DNA of 64,000 nucleotides. It comes from a virus (Duplodnaviria; Caudoviricetes). The position numbers were made by a program, and so were the translations under genes. The DNA is taken from IMG/VR virus record IMGVR_UViG_3300030330_005139. One strand, 5' to 3'. Below are positions 52,762 to 63,040 of this stretch, in pieces. The first letter of the stretch is position 1. Each line of letters begins with the position of its first letter. The notes under the pieces were generated by a model. That model worked only from the letters and a program-made list of their open reading frames with translations, was not told the origin of the DNA and ran no database searches.

Positions 52762-52823
52762 TGTGTTATAATGTTAGTAACCACCAAAGCTCCCCTTTGG
52801 TGTAATCACTAATCTAAAACGAC

Positions 52824-53015
52824 ATGTCGAGCACCCTTCTGGCAATTCAATCTCTTCGTAAAGTTTGGCGTGAGCAAGACTTCAAATTGAGTTCTGATCA
52901 ACAAAAACGTCTCGACGAGTTGACAGACCTTCGCCGCCGTGAAGTGAGTGAATTCTATGAACAGGGTCGCGTTTGGTCTGGTCCTTCTGAGGCTAGCAAA
53001 CCCGTCGAAGAGTGA
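52824..53015 (+). CDS. Hypothetical protein
   Basis: First ORF after repeat 1. Confidence 0.65.
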   Translation: MSSTLLAIQSLRKVWREQDFKLSSDQQKRLDELTDLRRREVSEFYEQGRVWSGPSEASKPVEE

Positions 53016-53021
53016 CAAACT

Positions 53022-53047
53022 GAGGGGGTTTCGCCCCCTCTTTTTTT
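53022..53047 (+). terminator. Intrinsic terminator
   Basis: GAGGGGG-tttcg-CCCCCTC followed by T7. Confidence 0.85.
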
Positions 53048-53060
53048 ATCTTAACTTATC

Positions 53061-53354
53061 ATGACAATGACTGAATCTAATTACAGAGTTCTGAAGTTTG
53101 GTAATCATCCCACCGAGGGTTTGTGGAACAGCAGAACATTCACTCGTTCGCTTGTTGAGGCAGAAAGTCTTTTTCATGAAGCAGAGGTTGAGCGTGCCAC
53201 TGGTGGAGATCTCATCGGTTCTGTTCTCATTAAGGTTGATGACGATTCCTGGCATGTCCTTGACAAGTTTGGCACAGAGGGTTACAGTATTGGTCTGTCT
53301 CAAGTTGGAGTGTTTGAGGTCTCAAATTCCGACACTGTTATGGATCTATCATGA
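53061..53354 (+). CDS. Hypothetical protein
   Basis: 97-aa ORF. Confidence 0.6.
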   Translation: MTMTESNYRVLKFGNHPTEGLWNSRTFTRSLVEAESLFHEAEVERATGGDLIGSVLIKVDDDSWHVLDKFGTEGYSIGLSQVGVFEVSNSDTVMDLS

Positions 53355-53623
53355 AATTTGTTGACTTTACGGCAGAAGAATATACCTTCGTTACCAAATT
53401 ATTGGAAGAGACGAAGGCATCTACAAACAAGGATCTTAAAGTTCTGAATGGTGCAATCTTGGCTCTCAAAATTGCATCGGCTGACGACCATTACCGTCGT
53501 TATGTGAAGATTGCTCCTCATGGTGAAAGACTCACTAGGGAACAATTCTTTGAGGAACTTTATCATATAACTGAACAAGATTTGAAGTCAAGAGATGATA
53601 ACGGCGGTTTCGGTTATTGTTAG
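53351..53623 (+). CDS. Hypothetical protein
   Basis: ATGA overlap; its TAG stop lies inside repeat 2. Confidence 0.6.
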   Translation: MKFVDFTAEEYTFVTKLLEETKASTNKDLKVLNGAILALKIASADDHYRRYVKIAPHGERLTREQFFEELYHITEQDLKSRDDNGGFGYC

Positions 53624-53647
53624 TAACCTCTAAAGCTCCCCTTTAGT

Positions 53648-54553
53648 ATGACTAAACCTCTCACCCACATAGCCCACCCAGAAGACCTCATCCTCTCCGG
53701 TGAGCTCTGGGTGGTTGATGCCCTAACTAATCAAGCCAATCACATCTCTGTCAAGATTGATGGAGCACCTGCGATTGTCTGGGGAACTCACCCACAAACT
53801 GGTAAGTTCTTTGTTTCAACCAAGTCTGCTTTCAACAAGAAAAAGGACAAAATCTGTTACACCATTGATGATGTCAGAAAGCACTTCAAAGGTGTTTATG
53901 AACTCCAAGACATTCTGATCACCTGTCTTATGAACTTGCCCGTAACTGAGGGCATCTTCCAAGGTGATTTCATTGGTTTTGGTGGTGAAGGTCAGAAAGC
54001 TTTCACTCCTAACACTCTCACCTACACCTTCTCTGAGGCACCACATCAGACCATCATTGTCGCCCCTCATACTTATTATGAGGTGGATTCTGACACTCAC
54101 ATGAGTCAAGCAGTCCCACATCCTCTGAAGGGTGATCTCATCTCGACCGACGATTGTTTGTTCATTCAACCTTTCGTTGATCGTTTCCAACGTGATCACC
54201 GTCCCTTCAAGATTAACAAGTCTCGTTGGAACTTTCTCTCTCAGAAAGACGCACAAAGTGCAATCATCTCCATCAACGCTTTGATCCGTTCTGGTCAAGA
54301 ACTTGATGACCAAACTCTCATCGAGATCATCGGTGATGCTGACCTGGTTAACCTCTATCAACTGGTCATTTCTCTAAAAGAGATGTTTATGGATGATCTC
54401 ATCGTTTATGGTTCTCCGACCTGTTCTGTGGGGTCTGAGAGGGTTCTGGCAGAGGGTTTCGTTATTTACTCCGACCACGGTGACATTCCTCTGAAACTTG
54501 TCAATCGTCATGAGTTCGCATTCAACAACATGAACTATGGTAAATTCTCCTGA
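53648..54553 (+). CDS. Ligase-like covalent nucleotidyltransferase-fold protein (DUF6267-like)
   Basis: H..HPED, VKIDGAP, FQGD, EGFVI, LKLVNR. Confidence 0.6.
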   Translation: MTKPLTHIAHPEDLILSGELWVVDALTNQANHISVKIDGAPAIVWGTHPQTGKFFVSTKSAFNKKKDKICYTIDDVRKHFKGVYELQDILITCLMNLPVTEGIFQGDFIGFGGEGQKAFTPNTLTYTFSEAPHQTIIVAPHTYYEVDSDTHMSQAVPHPLKGDLISTDDCLFIQPFVDRFQRDHRPFKINKSRWNFLSQKDAQSAIISINALIRSGQELDDQTLIEIIGDADLVNLYQLVISLKEMFMDDLIVYGSPTCSVGSERVLAEGFVIYSDHGDIPLKLVNRHEFAFNNMNYGKFS

Positions 54554-54605
54554 TTATTGTTAGTAACCTCCAAAGATCACCTTTAGTGTAACCGCCCCCC
54601 AACAC

Positions 54606-54803
54606 ATGAACGAACAGAACTCCAATCAACTGCGAGACAAAAGCATTGACACAATGGGTCAGACTCTTTTTGACCGTTTCGCTGAACTTCTGGACGACGA
54701 TCAAGAAACCGCTAAGGCACTCCATTCTGAATGGGTTGTTGATGGTCAGGATCCCGAAGAAGGCGATTACGAGTTCATCTTTGTTGAAAAGATCTCCTCA
54801 TGA
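54606..54803 (+). CDS. Hypothetical protein
   Basis: After repeat 3. Confidence 0.6.
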   Translation: MNEQNSNQLRDKSIDTMGQTLFDRFAELLDDDQETAKALHSEWVVDGQDPEEGDYEFIFVEKISS

Positions 54804-55006
54804 AAAATCTCTCAGATCGCACAATTTCTAACCTGGCAACTGCAGTCCATGAGTCTGTCGTCAAACAGATCTACAGTGATCCTAAATTCCTGACAGACTT
54901 GTCTGAAGCCCTTGGCAGATCCCTCACCGAGCTTTATGGTGAGATGGACGAACAACTAAGGTCAGATATTGGAATGTTAATTTTCGACAGGATGACAATC
55001 AAATGA
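54800..55006 (+). CDS. Hypothetical protein
   Basis: ATGA overlap; resembles 58691-58909 (IYSDPKF vs IYTDDRF). Confidence 0.6.
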   Translation: MKNLSDRTISNLATAVHESVVKQIYSDPKFLTDLSEALGRSLTELYGEMDEQLRSDIGMLIFDRMTIK

Positions 55007-55215
55007 GCAAATGGATTGTTCAGAAACCCTCCATTCTTGACCCAAAACAAATCTCTCACGGGTTTGTCATCAATGATGGAGAATATGCAGCAGTCCCAAT
55101 GAGTAACAGCGACGCACAACTGATGGTCATCCATAACGGATCACCACTCAAAGTTTGTCGTAACGAATCATCAGCTTTCAACTTTATCAAGAAACACCAA
55201 AAACGAAGAAAATGA
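55003..55215 (+). CDS. Hypothetical protein
   Basis: YAAVP...IHNG...CRN. Confidence 0.65.
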   Translation: MSKWIVQKPSILDPKQISHGFVINDGEYAAVPMSNSDAQLMVIHNGSPLKVCRNESSAFNFIKKHQKRRK

Positions 55216-55424
55216 AACAAACATTCAGATTCTTTTCATCCATCATCATCGGTTCTGTGGCACTTGCTGGTGTCTCTTTCATCTTTGATCAACAACGTAA
55301 CCAACAAGATTTTGTTGGTGGGCGAGTTGTTGGTTATGTTGAAGTTTCTCCTGGTGTTTGTGAATCCACCTTCATGGGAGAAGACAATGAGTTCTACATT
55401 ATTCAAGAGGAGTGCAACAAATGA
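55212..55424 (+). CDS. Hypothetical membrane-anchored protein
   Basis: TM N-terminus; VGYVEVSPGVC. Confidence 0.6.
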   Translation: MKQTFRFFSSIIIGSVALAGVSFIFDQQRNQQDFVGGRVVGYVEVSPGVCESTFMGEDNEFYIIQEECNK

Positions 55425-55606
55425 TCAACACTGATCTTCTCGCAGTCATCGAAAGTCTGGAAGATGGTGTGAATGTCTCATATGAGGCACTTGATGATCC
55501 TGATCGGGGTTATACTTACGCCACTAGATATTCACGAGTCACGATGACTCACGCCATTGAATGTCTCAAACTCATCATTGAACAAAACCAAAAAGAAAAT
55601 GATTGA
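55421..55606 (+). CDS. Hypothetical protein
   Basis: ATGA overlap. Confidence 0.6.
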   Translation: MINTDLLAVIESLEDGVNVSYEALDDPDRGYTYATRYSRVTMTHAIECLKLIIEQNQKEND

Positions 55607-55769
55607 CACTGATCTTCTCATCGCTTACGAAGAAGGAACCATTGAAAAAGATCAGTTCCTTGAATTGTTCCAACAAATTTATGACTCTAGGGCATATACC
55701 TGGCTTCAAGGTCATTATGGTCGCACACTTTCTGACCTGGCACAAGCTGGTCTGATAAATCTCAAGTGA
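55599..55769 (+). CDS. Hypothetical protein
   Basis: AYEEG...WLQGHYGR. Confidence 0.65.
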   Translation: MIDTDLLIAYEEGTIEKDQFLELFQQIYDSRAYTWLQGHYGRTLSDLAQAGLINLK

Positions 55770-55820
55770 TTATTGTTAGTTACCCCTAAAGCTCCCCTTT
55801 AGTGTAACCACTGATTTACT

Positions 55821-56009
55821 ATGACACTCACTGAAAGAAACCAAAAACTCTTCGAACTTCGTCAGAAACTCAACAAAGCCCGTGCAGAAGTTGCATGGAT
55901 TGAGCAAGAGATCTGGCTCACCAAAGATCAATATGATCGTGAGGGTCTTGACCTCTTCAAAGAAATGGGTCTCGATAGTCCCATGTTCTACGAAATTTAC
56001 GGAGGTTGA
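55821..56009 (+). CDS. Hypothetical protein
   Basis: After repeat 4. Confidence 0.6.
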   Translation: MTLTERNQKLFELRQKLNKARAEVAWIEQEIWLTKDQYDREGLDLFKEMGLDSPMFYEIYGG

Positions 56010-56013
56010 TGAC

Positions 56014-56181
56014 ATGATCACATCTAAGACACAAATGCTCAAGATCATGAAAACCTGTGCTCATGCAGATACTCTCACCCGAGAAGAAAAGTTTCTTGTC
56101 TTCTGTAGAGTATGTGACAACATGCTCAAAGAGGGCAGAATGACCAAGGCAACACATAAACGGTTCACTCAGATTTGGTGA
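56014..56181 (+). CDS. Hypothetical protein
   Basis: MITSKTQ...DNMLKEGRMT. Confidence 0.6.
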   Translation: MITSKTQMLKIMKTCAHADTLTREEKFLVFCRVCDNMLKEGRMTKATHKRFTQIW

Positions 56182-56235
56182 CATTATTGTTAGTTACCCC
56201 TAAAGCTCCCCTTTAGTGTAACCACGTTTTCCATT

Positions 56236-56583
56236 ATGACTTTCGTAGCTCCACAACACAAATCAGAATATCTCACTGAGTGTCTCATTGAGGTTCTCAA
56301 CAACCGTGAGAAAGTGAACGCTCTTGAGTCTTCACGAACCGTTTACACTAACTTCGAGTATGAAGTTGGTCGTAAGTACATCAAAGTCTGGTCTTATCTG
56401 GTCGATGGTGATGAACGTCTCCGTGGTCGTTCCTGTTACATGTTCGTGGACAAAGAGACTGGAGCGGTTTACAAACCAGCCTCTTATAAGGCACCCGCTA
56501 AGGGCATTCGGTTCCAGATTGATCAGTTGGCTGATAACCCTGACATCTGTGATCCTTATGGGAGTTTCCTTTACATCCGATGA
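56236..56583 (+). CDS. Conserved phage hypothetical protein
   Basis: GRKYIKV, FVDKETG.VYKPASYKAPAKG. Confidence 0.7.
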   Translation: MTFVAPQHKSEYLTECLIEVLNNREKVNALESSRTVYTNFEYEVGRKYIKVWSYLVDGDERLRGRSCYMFVDKETGAVYKPASYKAPAKGIRFQIDQLADNPDICDPYGSFLYIR

Positions 56584-56587
56584 GAAT

Positions 56588-56615
56588 GAGAGAGGTTTAC
56601 AACCTCTCTTTTTTT
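56588..56615 (+). terminator. Intrinsic terminator
   Basis: AGAGAGGTT-tac-AACCTCTCT then T-run. Confidence 0.8.
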
Positions 56616-56713
56616 ATGTTAAAATCCTTTTGTCTCAATGAAGGCGCTAAGAATCTAGAGTACATTGTTAGTAACCTCTAAAGCTCTCCTGTAGTGTAAC
56701 TTACTTGGTTTTT

Positions 56714-56908
56714 ATGACCAGTTCTGATCTTCGTCCTAATGTTGTGATGGAAATGGATGATTATTCATCCACCTTTGAACTCCTAACCCTTGACTTTAAG
56801 GCACGAGTAAAGATTCACAACTATGAAGTAAAGAAACTCGGTGAGGACATCAGAGCACTTTTCAACTTCGTTTCTGATAAGATGTTCTTCAAACTCATCG
56901 ACATGTGA
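56714..56908 (+). CDS. Hypothetical protein
   Basis: After repeat 6. Confidence 0.55.
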   Translation: MTSSDLRPNVVMEMDDYSSTFELLTLDFKARVKIHNYEVKKLGEDIRALFNFVSDKMFFKLIDM

Positions 56909-56913
56909 TGAAC

Positions 56914-56939
56914 GAGAGAGGAGTAATCCTCTCTTTTTT
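56914..56939 (+). terminator. Intrinsic terminator
   Basis: AGAGAGGA-gtaa-TCCTCTCT then T-run, abutting repeat 7. Confidence 0.8.
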
Positions 56940-56990
56940 ATTGTTAGTTACCTCCAAAGCTCACCCTTAGTGTAATCACTCATTCAAACC

Positions 56991-57170
56991 ATGATTCACT
57001 ATCTCGTTAAGTGTCCCTCTGATCCTTATGAGAACACCGATTGTTTAAGTGATCTCGACAGGGCTTGGGATCTCTGTCTCTCACTCGCTGAAGAGTATGG
57101 ATACGCCGAAGTTGGTTACTATAACATCCAAGGACATTACCAACTCGTCGGTGATTATTGTTTCAACTGA
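56991..57170 (+). CDS. Hypothetical protein (59 aa)
   Basis: Translated by hand: MIHYLVKCPSDPYEN...AWDLC...YGYAEV. Confidence 0.6.
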   Translation: MIHYLVKCPSDPYENTDCLSDLDRAWDLCLSLAEEYGYAEVGYYNIQGHYQLVGDYCFN

Positions 57171-57172
57171 TT

Positions 57173-57325
57173 ATGAATAATAATACCACTAACTCTGTCA
57201 TTTCTCTTGTTACCTATCTTCAGGAACTGGAAGAGAACAACAAAATCAATGAGAGTGAGTACAAAAGAGCGTTGAAACTTGTAAACAATATTGTTAGTAA
57301 CCTCCAAAACTCTCCTTTAGTATAA
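57173..57325 (+). CDS. Hypothetical protein (50 aa), reads through repeat 8
   Basis: Translated by hand; ends VSNLQNSPLV. Confidence 0.4.
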   Translation: MNNNTTNSVISLVTYLQELEENNKINESEYKRALKLVNNIVSNLQNSPLV

Positions 57326-57339
57326 CCCACTCAATCATT

Positions 57340-57474
57340 ATGACACCTGAAGAATTTGAAGAAAATGTCAGAATCATCACGGGAGATCCTAACTGGTCCC
57401 TCCCTGATGATGAAGACAATAATGTTAGTAACCCCCAAAGCTCTCCTTTAGTACAACCCACTCAACCATTATGA
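57340..57474 (+). CDS. Hypothetical protein (44 aa), reads through repeat 9
   Basis: Translated by hand: MTPEEFEENVR...VSNPQSSPLVQPTQPL. Confidence 0.4.
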   Translation: MTPEEFEENVRIITGDPNWSLPDDEDNNVSNPQSSPLVQPTQPL

Positions 57475-57659
57475 AAACTAAGAATCCTCGTCTTGTCTTT
57501 GGTGATGATGAATTCACCTTCTTCCGTGTTAAACTCCTTGAAGAGGTAAAAGCTCAGAAGAGGTTGTTCAACCCAACTCAAGCAAAGAAAGAACAGAAGA
57601 AGGCAGACGATTGTCTTCGTTATCTGATGAACCATCAACCACACCAACTGGAATTCTGA
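57471..57659 (+). CDS. Hypothetical protein
   Basis: After repeat 9. Confidence 0.6.
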   Translation: MKTKNPRLVFGDDEFTFFRVKLLEEVKAQKRLFNPTQAKKEQKKADDCLRYLMNHQPHQLEF

Positions 57660-57808
57660 TGAACACTTTACAAGTCGAACAATTACAGGAAGACATCATC
57701 ACAATCATGGAATCTCATTTTCCTAATGAGAACGTAGATGAGGTGATTGAACTTCTATGTGACGCTGTTAACCAAAACATTTCACCCACACTTTCTGATC
57801 ATGACTAA
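57659..57808 (+). CDS. Hypothetical protein
   Basis: EQLQEDII...LCDAV. Confidence 0.55.
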   Translation: MNTLQVEQLQEDIITIMESHFPNENVDEVIELLCDAVNQNISPTLSDHD

Positions 57809-58091
57809 AACTGAAGCACTCGCCATCTTCAAGCGAGCAGGATACACTTTCATTGGATACAAGGACACTGGCTGGGGTTGTAAGCAGTACTACTTCACTC
57901 ACCCCAACATTCAAGGAACTGAGGTTTCTTATGATCTGCCACTGTTGAGAAAGAGAGCAAGACATCTCGACATCAAGATGTGGCATGATGAGTATAAGGA
58001 ACAGCTGAGACAGGGCATTCAGGAGACTCTCTTCACTGACACGGAGATTGAGTGTAATTACTTCATCGAGAACCCTGTTGTAGTCGCCTAA
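57801..58091 (+). CDS. Hypothetical protein
   Basis: MTKTEAL...; stop abuts repeat 10. Confidence 0.6.
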   Translation: MTKTEALAIFKRAGYTFIGYKDTGWGCKQYYFTHPNIQGTEVSYDLPLLRKRARHLDIKMWHDEYKEQLRQGIQETLFTDTEIECNYFIENPVVVA

Positions 58092-58148
58092 TATTGTTAG
58101 TTACCTCCAAAGCTCCCCTTTAGTGTAACCACTCATTCAACTCAAATC

Positions 58149-58631
58149 ATGGCAACTCGTGGACGAATTGGAATCAAACTTTCTGATGGTTCCATCCTCT
58201 CAGCTTATCATCACTGGGACTCCTATCCTCAGTGGCTCGGTGTTAACCTGGTGAAGAACTTCAATTCTTTTCAGAAAGCAGCTGAACTCATCGATGGTGG
58301 TGACATGTCAGCATGTTACACTACTCATACTTGGGAGTCTGAACCTCTCAAACGAGAGATCATTCAACCTGATGGATCTTCTAAGTTCGAGTACATCAAA
58401 GACAATGAAGGCAACTGGGTTTACACCAAAGTGAAGCCAGAAGCTGGTCCTCAGTATTACTCTGAGCGTGGTGAGGATTGTCCTCCCCGTCTCGATCCTG
58501 ACCTTTTCGAGTATCTCTCCAAAGGCGAAGAATTCGCATACGTTTTTGAAGGTGGAACCTGGATATGTTATGATCTACATGAGTTCGATAGTGAGGAACC
58601 TGAAATTGTTGAAATCCCTCAGGTTCTCTGA
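58149..58631 (+). CDS. Conserved phage hypothetical protein
   Basis: MATRGRIG...YHHWDSYP...EEFAYVF. Confidence 0.7.
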   Translation: MATRGRIGIKLSDGSILSAYHHWDSYPQWLGVNLVKNFNSFQKAAELIDGGDMSACYTTHTWESEPLKREIIQPDGSSKFEYIKDNEGNWVYTKVKPEAGPQYYSERGEDCPPRLDPDLFEYLSKGEEFAYVFEGGTWICYDLHEFDSEEPEIVEIPQVL

Positions 58632-58690
58632 TTATTGTTTGTAACCTCTAAAGATCCCCTTTAGTGTAATCAACCATTTTCTCTAAACTG

Positions 58691-58909
58691 ATGACCAACC
58701 CTTCACAAACCCATAAAGCTCTTCAACTCCTTCGTGATGGGTTCATGATTGAGTTGACTGAAAAGATCTACACCGATGATCGATTCACAAATCTCATGAT
58801 GGATCTCACCTCTGAGTTTGTTGAGCAAAACATTCCCGTTGTTGATGAAGATCTCCAAGTGGATCTGGCACTGATGATGATGGAATCGATCTCGCTTCGT
58901 TCTTATTGA
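58691..58909 (+). CDS. Hypothetical protein
   Basis: After repeat 11. Confidence 0.6.
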   Translation: MTNPSQTHKALQLLRDGFMIELTEKIYTDDRFTNLMMDLTSEFVEQNIPVVDEDLQVDLALMMMESISLRSY

Positions 58910-58916
58910 TTTAAGT

Positions 58917-59435
58917 GTGACCGTGAAAACCAACCAAGAATTTATTTCCCTTGTAGAAGAGAGAACTCAATCAATTCTTTCCACCAAAGGTGATGTTGGG
59001 CGTCAGGCAATCGCAACGACTCGCGGTCAACAGGTGGAGAAAGCAGCAGCAATCTTATTATCGGATCACCCCAACGTTGAGAGTGTGGTTGAACAAGTCT
59101 TTGAAGAGGAAGTAGACGAGTTCTCCAACATTGACCTGGTTGTTACCACTAAAGACGGTCGAACAGTTTATGTACCCTGTGCTCGTGATCTTTGGTTGGG
59201 GACATCACAACAAGATCGCCTTCAGATTGTATGGGCAAAGTTTAAGGGTGGACTGTTTAATGACCATGATGTCTGTTATCTCTGCCTGGATGATATTAAC
59301 ACAATCTTGAACAAAGAGCACCGCAAGAGTGCCAGACGGGGACCAAAGATCAAAAACTGCTGTCGTGTTCTATTTGAAGCTGGAGTGATAATGAACTTCG
59401 AACACCTTTGGAATCACCTTCTCACCACTGATTGA
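58917..59435 (+). CDS. Hypothetical protein, possible degenerate restriction-endonuclease fold
   Basis: G..VE helix and IDLVV strand, no canonical ExK. Confidence 0.4.
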   Translation: MTVKTNQEFISLVEERTQSILSTKGDVGRQAIATTRGQQVEKAAAILLSDHPNVESVVEQVFEEEVDEFSNIDLVVTTKDGRTVYVPCARDLWLGTSQQDRLQIVWAKFKGGLFNDHDVCYLCLDDINTILNKEHRKSARRGPKIKNCCRVLFEAGVIMNFEHLWNHLLTTD

Positions 59436-59481
59436 TGGTGATTATTGTTTGTAACCTCCAAAGCTCCCCCTTAGTGTAACC

Positions 59482-59688
59482 ATGTTTTTCATTATGGCAT
59501 TTCTCGACTGGATTCAAGAAGCAATCGGTTCTAAAGTTGAAGACGAATTTGGCATGGTTCATGTCATCACAGGTGGCAAACTTGTGGCTGACTCTCCCAT
59601 GTGGCCGATGATTCAACTGACTGATGACATGGGTGTTCTACGATATGTCACTCTTGATCGTTTCATGGAACTCGTTTCTGTTGGGTGA
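59482..59688 (+). CDS. Hypothetical protein
   Basis: Between repeats 12 and 13. Confidence 0.6.
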   Translation: MFFIMAFLDWIQEAIGSKVEDEFGMVHVITGGKLVADSPMWPMIQLTDDMGVLRYVTLDRFMELVSVG

Positions 59689-59803
59689 TATTGTTTGTTA
59701 CCTCCAAAGCTCTTCATTAGTGTAACCAGGACTTCTTCTCTAAGGTTGTTTCTCTGAAAAGACTTCTTCCTTAGAGTTGTTTCTCCTCTTAAACAAAAAC
59801 ATC

Positions 59804-60010
59804 ATGGTCTATCTCATCTCTCAATCCAACGGTTGCACATACACTCTCGACCCCGATCATTCCCGAGTTCTGTATTACGCACCTTTGTTGTCCGATGGTA
59901 CTTGTGAAACCGCATTCTCAGCTTACGCTGAAGTCGAATGGGACGAATTGGATGAAGATGTTCTTAACGAAGCAGATCGTTGTTATCACCTTCTGATGTC
60001 TGATCGTTGA
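59804..60010 (+). CDS. Hypothetical protein
   Basis: Between repeats 13 and 14. Confidence 0.6.
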   Translation: MVYLISQSNGCTYTLDPDHSRVLYYAPLLSDGTCETAFSAYAEVEWDELDEDVLNEADRCYHLLMSDR

Positions 60011-60064
60011 GGATTATTGTTTGTTACCTCCAAAGCTCTTCATTAGTGTAACCACATCAACCTC

Positions 60065-60208
60065 ATGAAACTCGTTCTTTTCGTCATCGTTGGAATTCTG
60101 TTCTGGACGAGTGATGACGCACGAAACTTTACCGCTAATCAACTCAATAACGCAGCTGAAATCGTCCGACCTGATACTAACAAGAACTCCTTCACAATCA
60201 AATTCTGA
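60065..60208 (+). CDS. Small membrane protein (47 aa)
   Basis: Translated by hand: MKLVLFVIVGILFWTSDDARNFTA; fills repeat 14-15 interval. Confidence 0.6.
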   Translation: MKLVLFVIVGILFWTSDDARNFTANQLNNAAEIVRPDTNKNSFTIKF

Positions 60209-60264
60209 TTATTGTTTGTTACCACCAAAGCTCCCCTTTAGTGTAACCACTCATTCAACCAATC

Positions 60265-60501
60265 ATGACTAACACCACTTACAACGGCTGGGCCAATTAC
60301 GAGACCTGGAATGTCGCTCTCTGGCTTGGAAATGACGAATCGATGTATCAAATGGCTCGGATGTTCCGCCATCATGGTTATAAGTCACTTTCACACATGT
60401 TGGAAGAAACTTTCGGTTCTGTGACTCCCGATGGTGTATATTGGAAGCACTCTGATCTTGACATTGAAAGTCTCAATGAAATGTTAGAGGATGATTTCTG
60501 A
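60265..60501 (+). CDS. Conserved phage hypothetical protein
   Basis: YNGWANYETWNVALWL. Confidence 0.7.
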   Translation: MTNTTYNGWANYETWNVALWLGNDESMYQMARMFRHHGYKSLSHMLEETFGSVTPDGVYWKHSDLDIESLNEMLEDDF

Positions 60502-60503
60502 TT

Positions 60504-60791
60504 ATGTCATCAATTTATCAACTCCGCGGATCCACTTTGGATCCTTTTCTTTCTGCTAAACTTGCACCTTTCATTCACGCACATCGTCCACATGATAAAC
60601 CTCCCGCTAAAGAAGATTTGGATAAAGGTGATTACATCCCCAAAGAATCGCCATTGTCTAAAGATAACATCATCGACACTTATAAGGCAATTAAGTATCA
60701 CCAAGACCTTGAATGGTTAAAGAGAAAGAGAGAGTATAATAGTAAGTGGAAAGGATACAGATCTCATTTTGCGTTAGGTATCTCCGAATGA
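60504..60791 (+). CDS. Hypothetical protein
   Basis: 95-aa ORF. Confidence 0.5.
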   Translation: MSSIYQLRGSTLDPFLSAKLAPFIHAHRPHDKPPAKEDLDKGDYIPKESPLSKDNIIDTYKAIKYHQDLEWLKRKREYNSKWKGYRSHFALGISE

Positions 60792-61249
60792 AAGAATTTG
60801 ATTATGAACTTGATTACAAACGTCTTGACTTTACAGATGAAGAAACTCGTCAACTTTATCGTATTGGAAGGGGAGAACAAGGGGTTTTATTGGTACGCCC
60901 TTACACAGACGATATTTGTGCTCATTGGAAATTTAAAACCCCTCGTTTAGCATCATTATCATCACAAAAGATTCTAAAGATGTATGAAGATTATAAGGAG
61001 AATAAGGACTTTATTGGTATGGATATGTGTCGTAAGTTTTTAGAGATGGGTTTCACAAGAGCAAGAAGATATGCCAATCATAAGGATGGAAAGAAGTATA
61101 ATTCTCAGGGGGAGGTGTTACCTCAGGAGAAGGATTGGAGAACATCACCTAAGGCACAATCTGCTGTCATTTTTAAGAAGATAAGGGACCAAGTTGCTTA
61201 TGATCCTGTTTATAAGGAGATGAGAAGGTTATGGAGGGATAATGAGTAA
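60788..61249 (+). CDS. DUF4385-like protein
   Basis: YRIGRGEQGVL..PY, GMDMCRKFLEMGFTRARRYANHK. Confidence 0.75.
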   Translation: MKEFDYELDYKRLDFTDEETRQLYRIGRGEQGVLLVRPYTDDICAHWKFKTPRLASLSSQKILKMYEDYKENKDFIGMDMCRKFLEMGFTRARRYANHKDGKKYNSQGEVLPQEKDWRTSPKAQSAVIFKKIRDQVAYDPVYKEMRRLWRDNE

Positions 61250-61530
61250 ATGGTCCTAAAAAAAGGTCATAAATAACACTTTTTTATTAAATAAATGGTT
61301 TTTTAAATGTGTATGAGTGTTTTATTGTTTTCCACAAGTAATGTTCAATTCTGTGGAAATCGTGTGGAATAGTGTGATAAACTGTGGAAAAGTAACAGAA
61401 TAAGAGAGAGAATTATGGTCATCTTTTATCGTCCTAAATGTCTCCTGCCGTTGTGACTTATGTGTCTGGAAATGTGCCAGGTCTTGTGATCTTATTGTCA
61501 GTTTATGTCACCTGGCGTTGTGATCTTGGC
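61250..61530. other. Candidate replication origin or DnaA-binding region
   Basis: AT-rich tract, four TTTTCCACA-like boxes, three TTGTGA(T)CTT repeats. Confidence 0.45.
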
Positions 61531-61534
61531 GAGC

Positions 61535-61563
61535 ATTCTAACAGAAGGACTCAGAAATGTCAA
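61535..61563 (-). promoter_or_regulatory. Sigma70-type promoter firing leftward
   Basis: Minus strand TTGACA-17-TAGAAT with TG extension. Confidence 0.7.
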
Positions 61564-61694
61564 CCCCCCTCCGAGACACTCCCACCCCCAGATTGCAATT
61601 CCTTATGTATGACTTTCGCAACACACTTAACACAGTGGAGATATACTTGTTATAATACTTTTGTCCTCATAAAGGCACTGAGACTCAGCAGCAT

Positions 61695-62243
61695 ATGAAT
61701 ATACTTACCAAGACACTTTTAGGCACTCTGAGTCTACTCAGCACCATCACTGCCACTGTACTCTCAGGAGAACAGATTGGTAAGTATCACTTCATGACTG
61801 GTGAAGACTTTGGAGAACATGAAGCACTTGCCACACAACTGATTGATACACTGAACCAGATGAATGTGCCTGTGTTGGATGGTACTAAGAATGAACTCTC
61901 ACAGTGTACATCAAAGACGAGTAATGTTCTGGGGTACTACTCAGCAAAGCATGATGTGATGGTGATTTGTACTAAGGATGTTCCAGATTGGTTGAGGTTT
62001 GAGACATTGGTGCATGAGACAGTTCATGTCATTCAAGACGCCAGAGATGGGTTGGAGAATGACACATTAGGGCAACCTGGTAGGAGTTACATTTCTACCC
62101 TATATGGAGATCTGGCTAAGAAGAAGCGCCGCCTAATCCGTGAGTCTTATCCACAGTCTCAGTGGAATGTTGAGGTGGAGGCATTCTACTTTGAGACGAA
62201 ACCTCAGGTGGTGTTGAATGAACTGAAGACGTGGGCATTCTGA
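61695..62243 (+). CDS. Secreted HEXXH metallopeptidase-like protein
   Basis: Signal/TM segment; LVHETVHVIQD...EVEA. Confidence 0.7.
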   Translation: MNILTKTLLGTLSLLSTITATVLSGEQIGKYHFMTGEDFGEHEALATQLIDTLNQMNVPVLDGTKNELSQCTSKTSNVLGYYSAKHDVMVICTKDVPDWLRFETLVHETVHVIQDARDGLENDTLGQPGRSYISTLYGDLAKKKRRLIRESYPQSQWNVEVEAFYFETKPQVVLNELKTWAF

Positions 62244-62282
62244 TGGTGTTATTGTTAGTAACCTCGAAACCTCTTCTTTAGT

Positions 62283-62519
62283 ATGAACAACACTTCTACC
62301 ATCACTTTCCGTCAAGCACTTGTCATTCTTGAAGAACACTTTGACTCAACCTATCGTGGCATCAAAAGTGTTCGTGAAATGTGTTCAGATTTGACTGACG
62401 CGATGTATTGGGACAAGGAAGATCCCAACACAATCTATCATCAATTCGAGACTAAATTTGGTCCGAATCGTATTGTCAAAGACGATCAAATCATCAAACT
62501 TGCTCTACACTACGTTTGA
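62283..62519 (+). CDS. Hypothetical protein
   Basis: ATG embedded in the end of repeat 16. Confidence 0.6.
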   Translation: MNNTSTITFRQALVILEEHFDSTYRGIKSVREMCSDLTDAMYWDKEDPNTIYHQFETKFGPNRIVKDDQIIKLALHYV

Positions 62520-62527
62520 CCCATTGA

Positions 62528-62556
62528 TTGACAACTAAGGAAGAAACAGTTATTAT
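62528..62556 (+). promoter_or_regulatory. Sigma70-type promoter
   Basis: TTGACA-17-TATTAT. Confidence 0.75.
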
Positions 62557-62561
62557 ACATA

Positions 62562-62709
62562 TGTGAGACCAAATCCCTAAGGTCTATAAACTTAGAGGGA
62601 CACATAGAGAGTGGTTACTTTATGTGAGCTGTAAAGATTGGTGGTTCTTTCTTTATAGTCTAGTGGTTACAAAAAACAAGGGCTGGGGGTGGTTCCCCTG
62701 GTCCTTTTT
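62562..62709 (+). ncRNA. Candidate ~150-nt multi-hairpin small RNA with repeated GUGGUU
   Basis: Promoter upstream, four hairpins, terminator 62678-62709; GTGGTT at 62611, 62641, 62663, 62689. Confidence 0.65.
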
Positions 62710-62769
62710 ATTGCCTGGTTGTTATCACTGAAGTGGTGGTTATTATGTGACACAAAGTAACACTGAGAT

Positions 62770-62798
62770 TTGACAAATAAGAACAGTTCTGGTATACT
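62770..62798 (+). promoter_or_regulatory. Sigma70-type promoter
   Basis: TTGACA-17-TATACT with TG extension. Confidence 0.75.
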
Positions 62799-63040
62799 GA
62801 AGGGACAGTGATTTCCGTTGTTATAGTATATCGGGGTGTCCGGCTTAGTGAATAATAAGTAATAAGGGTAATAAGGGTTAACCCCCGAATGACCCCCCCC
62901 CTACTTTTTTCGAAAAGTCTAACCTACAAAGGTGACAATTCGAGCGAACAATATCTTTCTAATAAAAATATTTCTGAGGTATACGAAGGTAAATCTATGT
63001 CGAATTCAATGAGACACCCGTCGAAACACTTAAAGCACTT

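Follow-up and report, generated by a model that had tools for sequence, protein, structure and literature searches.

The window, by which we mean the whole 64,000-nucleotide stretch of viral DNA that was analyzed, comes from a marine T4-like cyanomyovirus that is uncultured. Genes for gp32, PhoH, ThyX, and tail proteins lie in the window, which cultured Prochlorococcus and Synechococcus myoviruses match in short patches only. From 52.7 to 62.3 kb, every gene is small, lies on the + strand, and is tightly packed, and this array carries 16 same-strand copies of a 40-bp promoter-like element (TTATTGTTAGTWACCTCCAAAGCTCCCCTTTAGT followed by GTAACCAC; 52768..62290, +), each ahead of a small gene, which together form the proposed target set of the RNA described here.

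Predicted transcription unit and fold

The region that follows the array had been flagged in a first-pass annotation as a candidate small RNA displaying GUGGUU in successive hairpin loops, and the promoter and terminator which that annotation described are both present. A sigma-70-type promoter, TTGACA-17 nt-TATTAT, lies at 62528..62556 (+) with 11 of 12 consensus matches and a predicted transcription start near 62559-62563, and 36 of 37 promoter bases are identical in both relatives that carry the RNA. Sites with 11/12 matches number six on the two strands of the 64-kb window, vs 1.9 in shuffles, and four of the six are clustered at 61563-62770. At the other end, an intrinsic terminator (62678..62712, +) is formed by a hairpin at 62678-62706 with 12 pairs (7 G-C) and a 5-nt loop, UGGUU, followed by a U tract (TTTTTATT / UUUUUAUU); the fourth GUGGUU motif (62689-62694) occupies its apex, as claimed, and the changes found in the relative L320 keep the stem. 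A dedicated promoter and a Rho-independent terminator therefore bracket a short region without a conserved ORF, which is the layout of an sRNA gene, and a non-coding transcript of ~150 nt (62560..62712, +) is predicted from the fold, the consensus fold, and the strand asymmetry, comprising a three-way junction and the terminator hairpin. A coding reading was rejected, the sole ORF being one of 35 codons with a GTG start whose frame changes after 16 codons in L320. ARAGORN found no tRNA and no tmRNA, and the D-loop-like look of AGUGGUUA was dropped.

Further near-consensus promoters were observed on either side of this unit. At 62770-63040, a second promoter (TTGACA-17-TATACT, with a TG) is followed by a conserved non-coding stretch composed of GGGACAG...GGGGUGUCCGGCUUAGU, a C-run, and CTAACCTACAAAGG, the last part of which also occurs in S-B43 and P-TIM68; this stretch folds no better than shuffles (z 0.1). 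At 61535-61656, back-to-back near-consensus promoters are found, one at 61563 (-) directed towards the array and one at 61627 (+), and a leftward transcript from the 61563 promoter would run antisense to the array, with GUGGUUAC words of its own.

The predicted transcript (62560-62712, +; 153 nt) folds with -53.8 kcal/mol (z -4.19; 0/200 shuffles as good), as opposed to -31.3 kcal/mol (z -0.97) for the reverse strand of the same region. This strong strand asymmetry is expected of a fold rich in G-U pairs (9 of the 46 predicted pairs in the consensus fold), in agreement with the earlier remark that several stem mismatches are G-U. The consensus fold consists of a 5-bp closing helix, a plain 5' hairpin, two motif-loop hairpins, and the terminator. 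The 5' arm of the closing helix P1, GACCA (62567..62571, +), is invariant in the three variants known and pairs with UGGUU at 62664-62668, which is most of motif 3. Hairpin P2 (62574..62600, +), seen in both the fold and the consensus fold, is without a motif. Hairpin P3 (62601..62626, +) has a 9-bp stem, CACAUAGAG/CUUUAUGUG, and the loop AGUGGUUA, which holds motif 1 at 62611-62616 and has an unpaired probability of >0.9, while hairpin P4 (62628..62659, +) has a 10-bp stem, GCUGUAAAGA/UCUUUAUAGU, and the loop UUGGUGGUUCUU, with motif 2 at 62641-62646; these three hairpins were recovered as the first-pass annotation had drawn them. The third motif (62663-62668), part of a second seed AGUGGUUACA at 62662..62671 (+), had been described as unpaired, and this did not hold: it is predicted to be masked by P1, with a low unpaired probability, and its pairing with GACCA at 62567-71 closes the three-way junction. 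In the predicted ensemble, motif 1 is largely unpaired, motif 2 is unpaired in its core only, motif 3 is partly buried, and the motif 4 loop is largely unpaired yet partly buried.

GTGGTT occurs on the + strand at 62611, 62641, 62663, 62689, and 62736, that is, five times in 131 nt compared with 61 times on both strands of the whole window, which by our estimate is ~100 times the local expectation. The five copies reported earlier are thus all present, but four lie within the RNA and the fifth (62736-62741) is beyond the terminator, within a degenerate repeat-element copy (family D5; 62714..62755, +) that is deleted in L001/L320.

Homologues and conservation of the RNA

Homologues of the window RNA were sought by blastn, by synteny via the upstream ORF78, by three pattern scans, and with a covariance model. 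Three variants were found in all, namely, that of the window (= L257), that of L001/L320 (= L261), and that of L002/L319, the last of which has an N run (assembly gap; L319 = G002:C1, ~35680) within the terminator and is missing its 3' end. In blastn against 50,697 phage records, only the flanking ORFs were matched and the RNA stretch was without a match; synteny via ORF78 gave 13 loci, 2 of which have the RNA. Among metagenome contigs, the pattern scan recovered two Tara Oceans contigs with the flagged stretch, one identical and one a 90% variant. Besides the three variants, the motif-pattern scans of IMG/VR and metagenome contigs returned just coding repeats and iterons of unrelated viruses, and the covariance model gave no match in 37 related records (the complete S-B43 genome included) or in the loci of the kindred hairpins described below.

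Motifs 1-4 are invariant in both other variants, and the fifth copy is not conserved. Among the three variants, six stem changes are one-sided with the pair kept, four of them in P4 with the pair kept in all, and there are no double compensatory changes; by our count, 6 of 7 stem changes are kept, which is not significant (~0.16) for three near-identical variants. The RNA is 90% identical to that of L320, as opposed to 95% at the third codon positions of the adjoining ORF78, and so shows no sign of overall purifying selection. Divergence is concentrated in the 3' half (~86% identical), where three motifs and their flanks are unchanged, an outcome with an estimated chance of ~0.02-0.07. At the gathering score, the Rfam scan gave 0 matches in the window, C4, GcvB, CsrB/RsmZ, 6S, Yfr RNAs, and cyanophage motifs included, and with E up to 10 the best match was cow-rumen-3 at 15.5 bits vs a gathering score of 86.7. 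Since the RNA has neither an Rfam family nor a distant homologue, covariation within it is weak, and the comparative support that its own sequence could provide is likewise weak. In the literature searched, no paper was found that describes the promoter-like element or the window RNA, and no transcriptome of this phage was found.

The repeat element and its leader box

The element that precedes the small genes is not confined to the window: 199 distinct copies were collected from 58 IMG/VR stretches, and the cultured relatives S-B43, S-B05, and SynMITS9220M01 have it as well. Conservation extends from about -36 to +8 around a -10-like hexamer, TATAGT (TTTAGT in the window), with a 9-bp box, GTTAGTAAC or ATTACTCAC, at the -35 place and A/T tracts further upstream. 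The plan can be written as (A/T-rich)-GTTAGTAAC or ATTACTCAC-CTCCAAATGTCCCC-TATAGT-GTAACCAC/GTAAGCAY/ATGAACA (example loci L265-L318, L132:12001), of the three continuations after TATAGT GTAACCAC being the commonest, and GTAACC occurs twice per element. The ATG follows the element either at 0 or at 14-25 nt, and the leaders are nearly G-free. A portable promoter element with a C/A-rich GUAACCAC leader box is found across many marine cyanomyoviruses, and we read it as a putative promoter with its leader, specific to the phage and organized like PeSL cassettes. On sequence alone, readings as an NtcA box, a T7-like promoter, an N4-type hairpin promoter, or a late promoter fit worse than a -10 TATAGT preceded by A/T tracts and an unusual, conserved -30 box, and a CTAAAG/CTTTAG hairpin inside the window's elements was dropped, being absent from the wider family. 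The sequence AUUGUUAGUAA in the 5' part of the elements resembles the in-vitro-selected T4 RegA RNA site, AAUUGUUAUGUAA, and cyanomyoviruses encode RegA, so that the likeness offers a lead.

Where transcription from the element would begin bears directly on what the leaders contain. If TTTAGT is a sigma-70-type -10, the start would be the A of CCAC, which counts against the main reading: the promoter's own mRNAs would lose the greater part of the box, leaving read-through transcripts as the only targets. A start 7 nt after the hexamer is, in turn, hard to reconcile with the 24 genes whose ATG abuts the -10-like hexamer with no later ATG (for example, the DUF6267 genes; window positions 53648 and 62283, and 22 further loci). 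Such ATGs speak for heavy read-through or for a start further upstream, and hence for the region being included in some mRNAs. In ORF78, ATC stands at the position of the start codon of S-B43. The array itself contains two similar intrinsic terminators: behind that at 53013-53054, the next ATG (53061) comes within 7 nt, and behind that at 56581-56622 come an element copy and an ORF with a TTG start at 56705. Genes downstream of them may accordingly depend on read-through.

The GUGGUU-type loop words of the RNA are the exact antisense of the box that ends the element ahead of the small genes. Two 10-nt words, GAGUGGUUAC of loop 1 and AGUGGUUACA of motif 3, match GUAACCACUC and UGUAACCACU, respectively, as perfect complements. 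The best seed is GAGUGGUUAC (62609-62618), with exact 10-nt complements at 58125 and 60243, and those of AGUGGUUACA are at 55803, 58124, and 60242; in addition, UUGGUGGUU of the P4 loop is complementary to AACCACCAA in the first element copy (52779). Exact complements of the 10-mers GAGTGGTTAC and AGTGGTTACA occur in five element copies; the exact box is confined to 5/16, and weaker versions with G-U pairs or mismatches are seen at other copies. Perfect sites of 8-12 nt are found 8-13 nt upstream of five ATGs, opposite an accessible seed: UGUAACCACU at 55803..55812 (+), 8 nt before the ATG at 55821; UGUAACCAC at 56217..56225 (+), 10 nt before 56236; UGUAACCACUCA at 58124..58135 (+), 13 nt before 58149; GUGUAACCACA at 60046..60056 (+), 8 nt before 60065; and UGUAACCACUCA again at 60242..60253 (+), 11 nt before 60265. 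No Shine-Dalgarno word is present at the array starts, and seed and box are unchanged across the three variants.

This complementarity was further examined by counting and by duplex prediction. The + strand of the window has 71 complementary sites of nine nt, and 17 of these fall within the elements' 816 nt (1.3%). Predicted hybrids have energies of -14 to -17 kcal/mol, which after opening costs become a modest -4 to about -8 kcal/mol, the best duplex being that with the box at 58124 (hybrid -17.3, total -8.3 kcal/mol), and they are better than those of 250 random + strand windows (Mann-Whitney p ~1e-6). The element copies being repeats, these enrichment statistics count non-independent events.

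Kindred hairpins in related cyanophages

Kindred hairpins were found by way of GTGGTTA outside ORFs in element-bearing loci, and one family, GGGCAU-UGUAAC...[UGUGGUGGUUAC]...GUUACA-UGUAAGRCCC, keeps the loop word GUGGUUAC invariant while being non-homologous to the window RNA. Of 40 related records, 12 carry one copy or a tandem pair, and the window and its close relatives have none; examples lie at L013:2724-2782, L277:2588-2649, and L310:1262-1320 and, on the minus strand, at L301:1629-1686, L302:6447-6506, and L317:2168-2226, with a tandem pair at L268:1697-1808 (-). Compensatory double changes affect 6 of 13 pairs, the covariation score is reached by 0/500 shuffles, and 94% of cells pair vs 28-45% when the partners are slid. 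The family is absent from Rfam. These hairpins usually stand 10-15 nt upstream of an element, and the complement of their loop has a mean length of 7.2 nt downstream vs 3.3 nt upstream, the same tendency as in the sister family described next. Moreover, an AACCAC flank is seen in 29 of 53 unique elements in loci with such a hairpin or the window RNA, vs 19 of 133 elsewhere (odds ratio 7.3, p 5e-8), an association that is confounded by lineage.

A sister family, GGGC-GUCAA-[loop]-UUGAC-RUAAGRCCC, has highly variable loop sequences (minus-strand examples at L295:7292-7332, L287:6904-6946, and L335:10520-10557; further copies in L348-L367). In 16 of 17 distinct copies, the loop has a perfect complement of 8-13 nt just before the downstream ATG, placed 19-34 nt downstream (mean length of the complement 9.7 nt vs 2.3 nt for the upstream control). 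A NATAAATA late promoter (or TATAAT) usually lies between the hairpin and the complementary leader, and the genes behind are homing endonucleases with NUMOD3 and HNH_3 domains. To judge from these sequences, the sister family follows the T4 I-TevI plan, with co-variation of loop and leader. The pairing of loop words with leaders is a selected design in this phage group.

Proposed function and alternative explanations

The window RNA carries the word four times, has its own host-type promoter and a closing terminator, and finds its matching boxes in other, upstream units, which leaves it only action in trans. This trans-only layout, together with the selected loop/leader design of the phage group, leads us to predict a stand-alone, trans-acting, multi-loop anti-leader sRNA, a prediction that we give about an even chance of being right. 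Under this proposal, host RNA polymerase would start at the near-consensus sigma-70 promoter and end at the intrinsic terminator, yielding an RNA of ~150 nt with three hairpins on a junction and a terminator hairpin, in which G/U-rich GUGGUU(AC) words would be shown in loops. In trans, the loop words would pair with (U)GUAACCAC(UC), the C/A-rich box behind the promoter-like element, 8-13 nt upstream of the SD-less start codons of many small array genes, and this pairing would either block access of the ribosome to the short leader or direct its cleavage, so that the output of the whole box-bearing gene set would be lowered together. The window RNA would then represent the freed, multi-loop trans counterpart of the single cis anti-leader hairpins of related phages. 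What we observe is the sequence anatomy, the fold statistics, the complementarity, and the conservation and co-variation of the kindred hairpin families; transcription of the RNA, inclusion of the box in the target mRNAs, and repression as opposed to protection by the pairing are inferred. A bolder version, which we offer tentatively and consider somewhat less than probable, is that a free four-loop sRNA derived from a cis anti-leader hairpin would silence in trans a regulon of at least 12 of the phage's own cassette genes, defined solely by the GUAACCAC box, as an RNA counterpart of the early shut-off by T4 RegA/RegB.

The complementarity on which this proposal is built could also stem, at the sequence level, from descent of inverted element copies. 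The region sits directly behind ORF78 and ends the array with a locally strong terminator, both of its halves are weakly similar to the element reverse complement (summed 387 vs 278 +/- 28 in shuffles), and it is not conserved above neutral sites; it might therefore be nothing more than the structured 3' end (terminator and stabilizer) of array or ORF78 transcripts, assembled from inverted element remnants, with GUGGUU words that are fossils without a trans function. We regard this explanation as unlikely, given that a near-consensus promoter with 36/37 conserved bases stands after the ORF78 stop, that the motifs are invariant though the surrounding 3' half diverges by 14%, that three of the four motifs are held in hairpin loops, that no single alignment to the inverted element reaches significance (best score 29 vs 22.7 +/- 3.1), and that an unrelated hairpin family keeps the same loop word by selection. 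A trans-acting RNA could alternatively be aimed at the host, its G/U-rich loops pairing with AACCAC-type C/A-rich leaders or other RNAs of a Synechococcus or Prochlorococcus host during takeover. The promoter is indeed of a host-type early kind, and short repeated seeds might fit many C/A-rich, SD-less cyanobacterial leaders, but the exact 10-nt matches and the enrichment concern the phage's own elements, and the kindred hairpins pair with phage leaders, which makes a host target decidedly improbable.

The first-pass annotation had left the choice between a phage sponge and a multi-target regulator, and its antisense half is the one that gained ground, exact complements having been found in phage leaders, while nothing was found for the sponge. 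A protein sponge or decoy, whose GUGGUU loops would titrate an RNA-binding or single-strand-binding protein (in one version by mimicking the template strand of the element start), draws on the four like motifs, three of them in hairpin loops as in the CsrB/RsmZ layout, and on the loops being equal to the element's template strand from the end of the -10 onward. Against it, the motif is no known binding site and is without the GGA word of a CsrA-type site, no sponge or 6S family was matched in Rfam, Pfam scans of 20 window ORFs found no RNA-binding regulator that could be a candidate partner, and the co-variation of sister-family loops with downstream RNA sequence would be left unexplained; the sponge reading is not supported, and we consider it very unlikely. 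The words might finally be DNA sites, GTGGTT/GGTTAC serving as iteron- or operator-like sites for a factor that reads GTAACC, with an incidental RNA fold. GTAACC does occur twice per element, and GTGGTTAC iterons do occur in unrelated phages; however, it was the search pattern that picked out the iteron matches, the motifs with their intervals of 30, 22, 26, and 47 bp are out of helical phase, the fold is strongly strand-specific and G-U-rich, and the words lie between a promoter and a terminator, so that we find this explanation scarcely credible.

Should the trans-acting anti-leader sRNA be real, its implications would reach beyond a single locus. Targets are known for very few small RNAs from lytic phages, and among T4-like cyanophages, the antisense RNA CfrI alone is established (PMC2984593). 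Genes newly acquired with a mobile promoter-leader cassette would, through its short box, come under common post-transcriptional control, and the RNA would open a direct way to study how marine cyanobacteria read leaders that are C/A-rich and SD-less. The two uncatalogued hairpin families, with their strong covariation, extend the "masked leader" rule of T4 to ocean phages, and both can be converted to covariance models for annotation.

Comparison with known systems

The closest known counterparts of the target elements, as opposed to the RNA, are the PeSL cassettes of T4-type phages (PMC2839356, PMC4122927). Both consist of a conserved promoter-bearing repeat ahead of each small gene in a hyperplastic region, and relatives differ in the neighboring genes at the element seams. 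Unlike in PeSL cassettes, the -35 region of the element (GTTAGTAAC or ATTACTCAC) is not sigma-70-like, its spacer and the first 8 bases past the -10 are conserved, and a stem-loop is not conserved across the element family.

For the RNA itself, the T-even hairpins of I-TevI, I-TevII, I-TevIII, segB, and mobE mask the ribosome-binding site on read-through transcripts, while late transcripts escape (PMC2988022). The kindred hairpins display this plan, with an arm and loop, a promoter (often NATAAATA), a complementary leader, and a homing-endonuclease gene, and the window RNA has the same kind of loop word as they do. It differs from such masks in having four loops instead of one and a terminator after the loops, with no complementary box within the next unit; closed by this terminator, and with boxes upstream in other units, it cannot act as a cis mask. 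The likeness to CsrB/RsmZ is limited to several hairpins with the same short word in each loop: the loops AGUGGUUA, UUGGUGGUUCUU, and UGGUU are without an A(N)GGA word, and in place of a family match or a partner protein, neither of which was found, there is a complementary RNA partner.

The c4 antisense RNAs expose short words that pair with complementary stretches of mRNA from the same phage and shut off translation. Those of phages P1 and P7 (Rfam C4; Citron and Schuster 1990, cited in PMC8198154) provide, alongside silencing by GcvB (PMC3879156), a precedent for the principle. The window RNA resembles c4 in being a small structured phage RNA whose words match sites just upstream of a phage gene start. 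It is unlike c4 in that it has no sequence or model match to C4, in that it has its own promoter and terminator whereas c4 is cut from its target transcript, in that four like words face up to 16 dispersed targets as opposed to two sites in one operon, and in that it belongs to a lytic T4-like cyanophage and not to a temperate immunity circuit.

The G/U-rich region R1 of GcvB silences ACA or C/A-rich enhancer motifs upstream of the start site (PMC3879156). The window RNA likewise sets a G/U-rich seed against C/A-rich words upstream of many starts, in element leaders that are nearly G-free. It departs from GcvB in coming from a phage, in repeating the seed in separate loops, in having no Rfam match, and in having targets that share the box via one common promoter-leader element. 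No Hfq dependence is known or expected in marine cyanobacteria, which is a further difference from GcvB. The window RNA is new and without a family match, while the kind of RNA is already known; what is unusual is that its seeds are repeated and that its targets are defined by a portable promoter-leader element.
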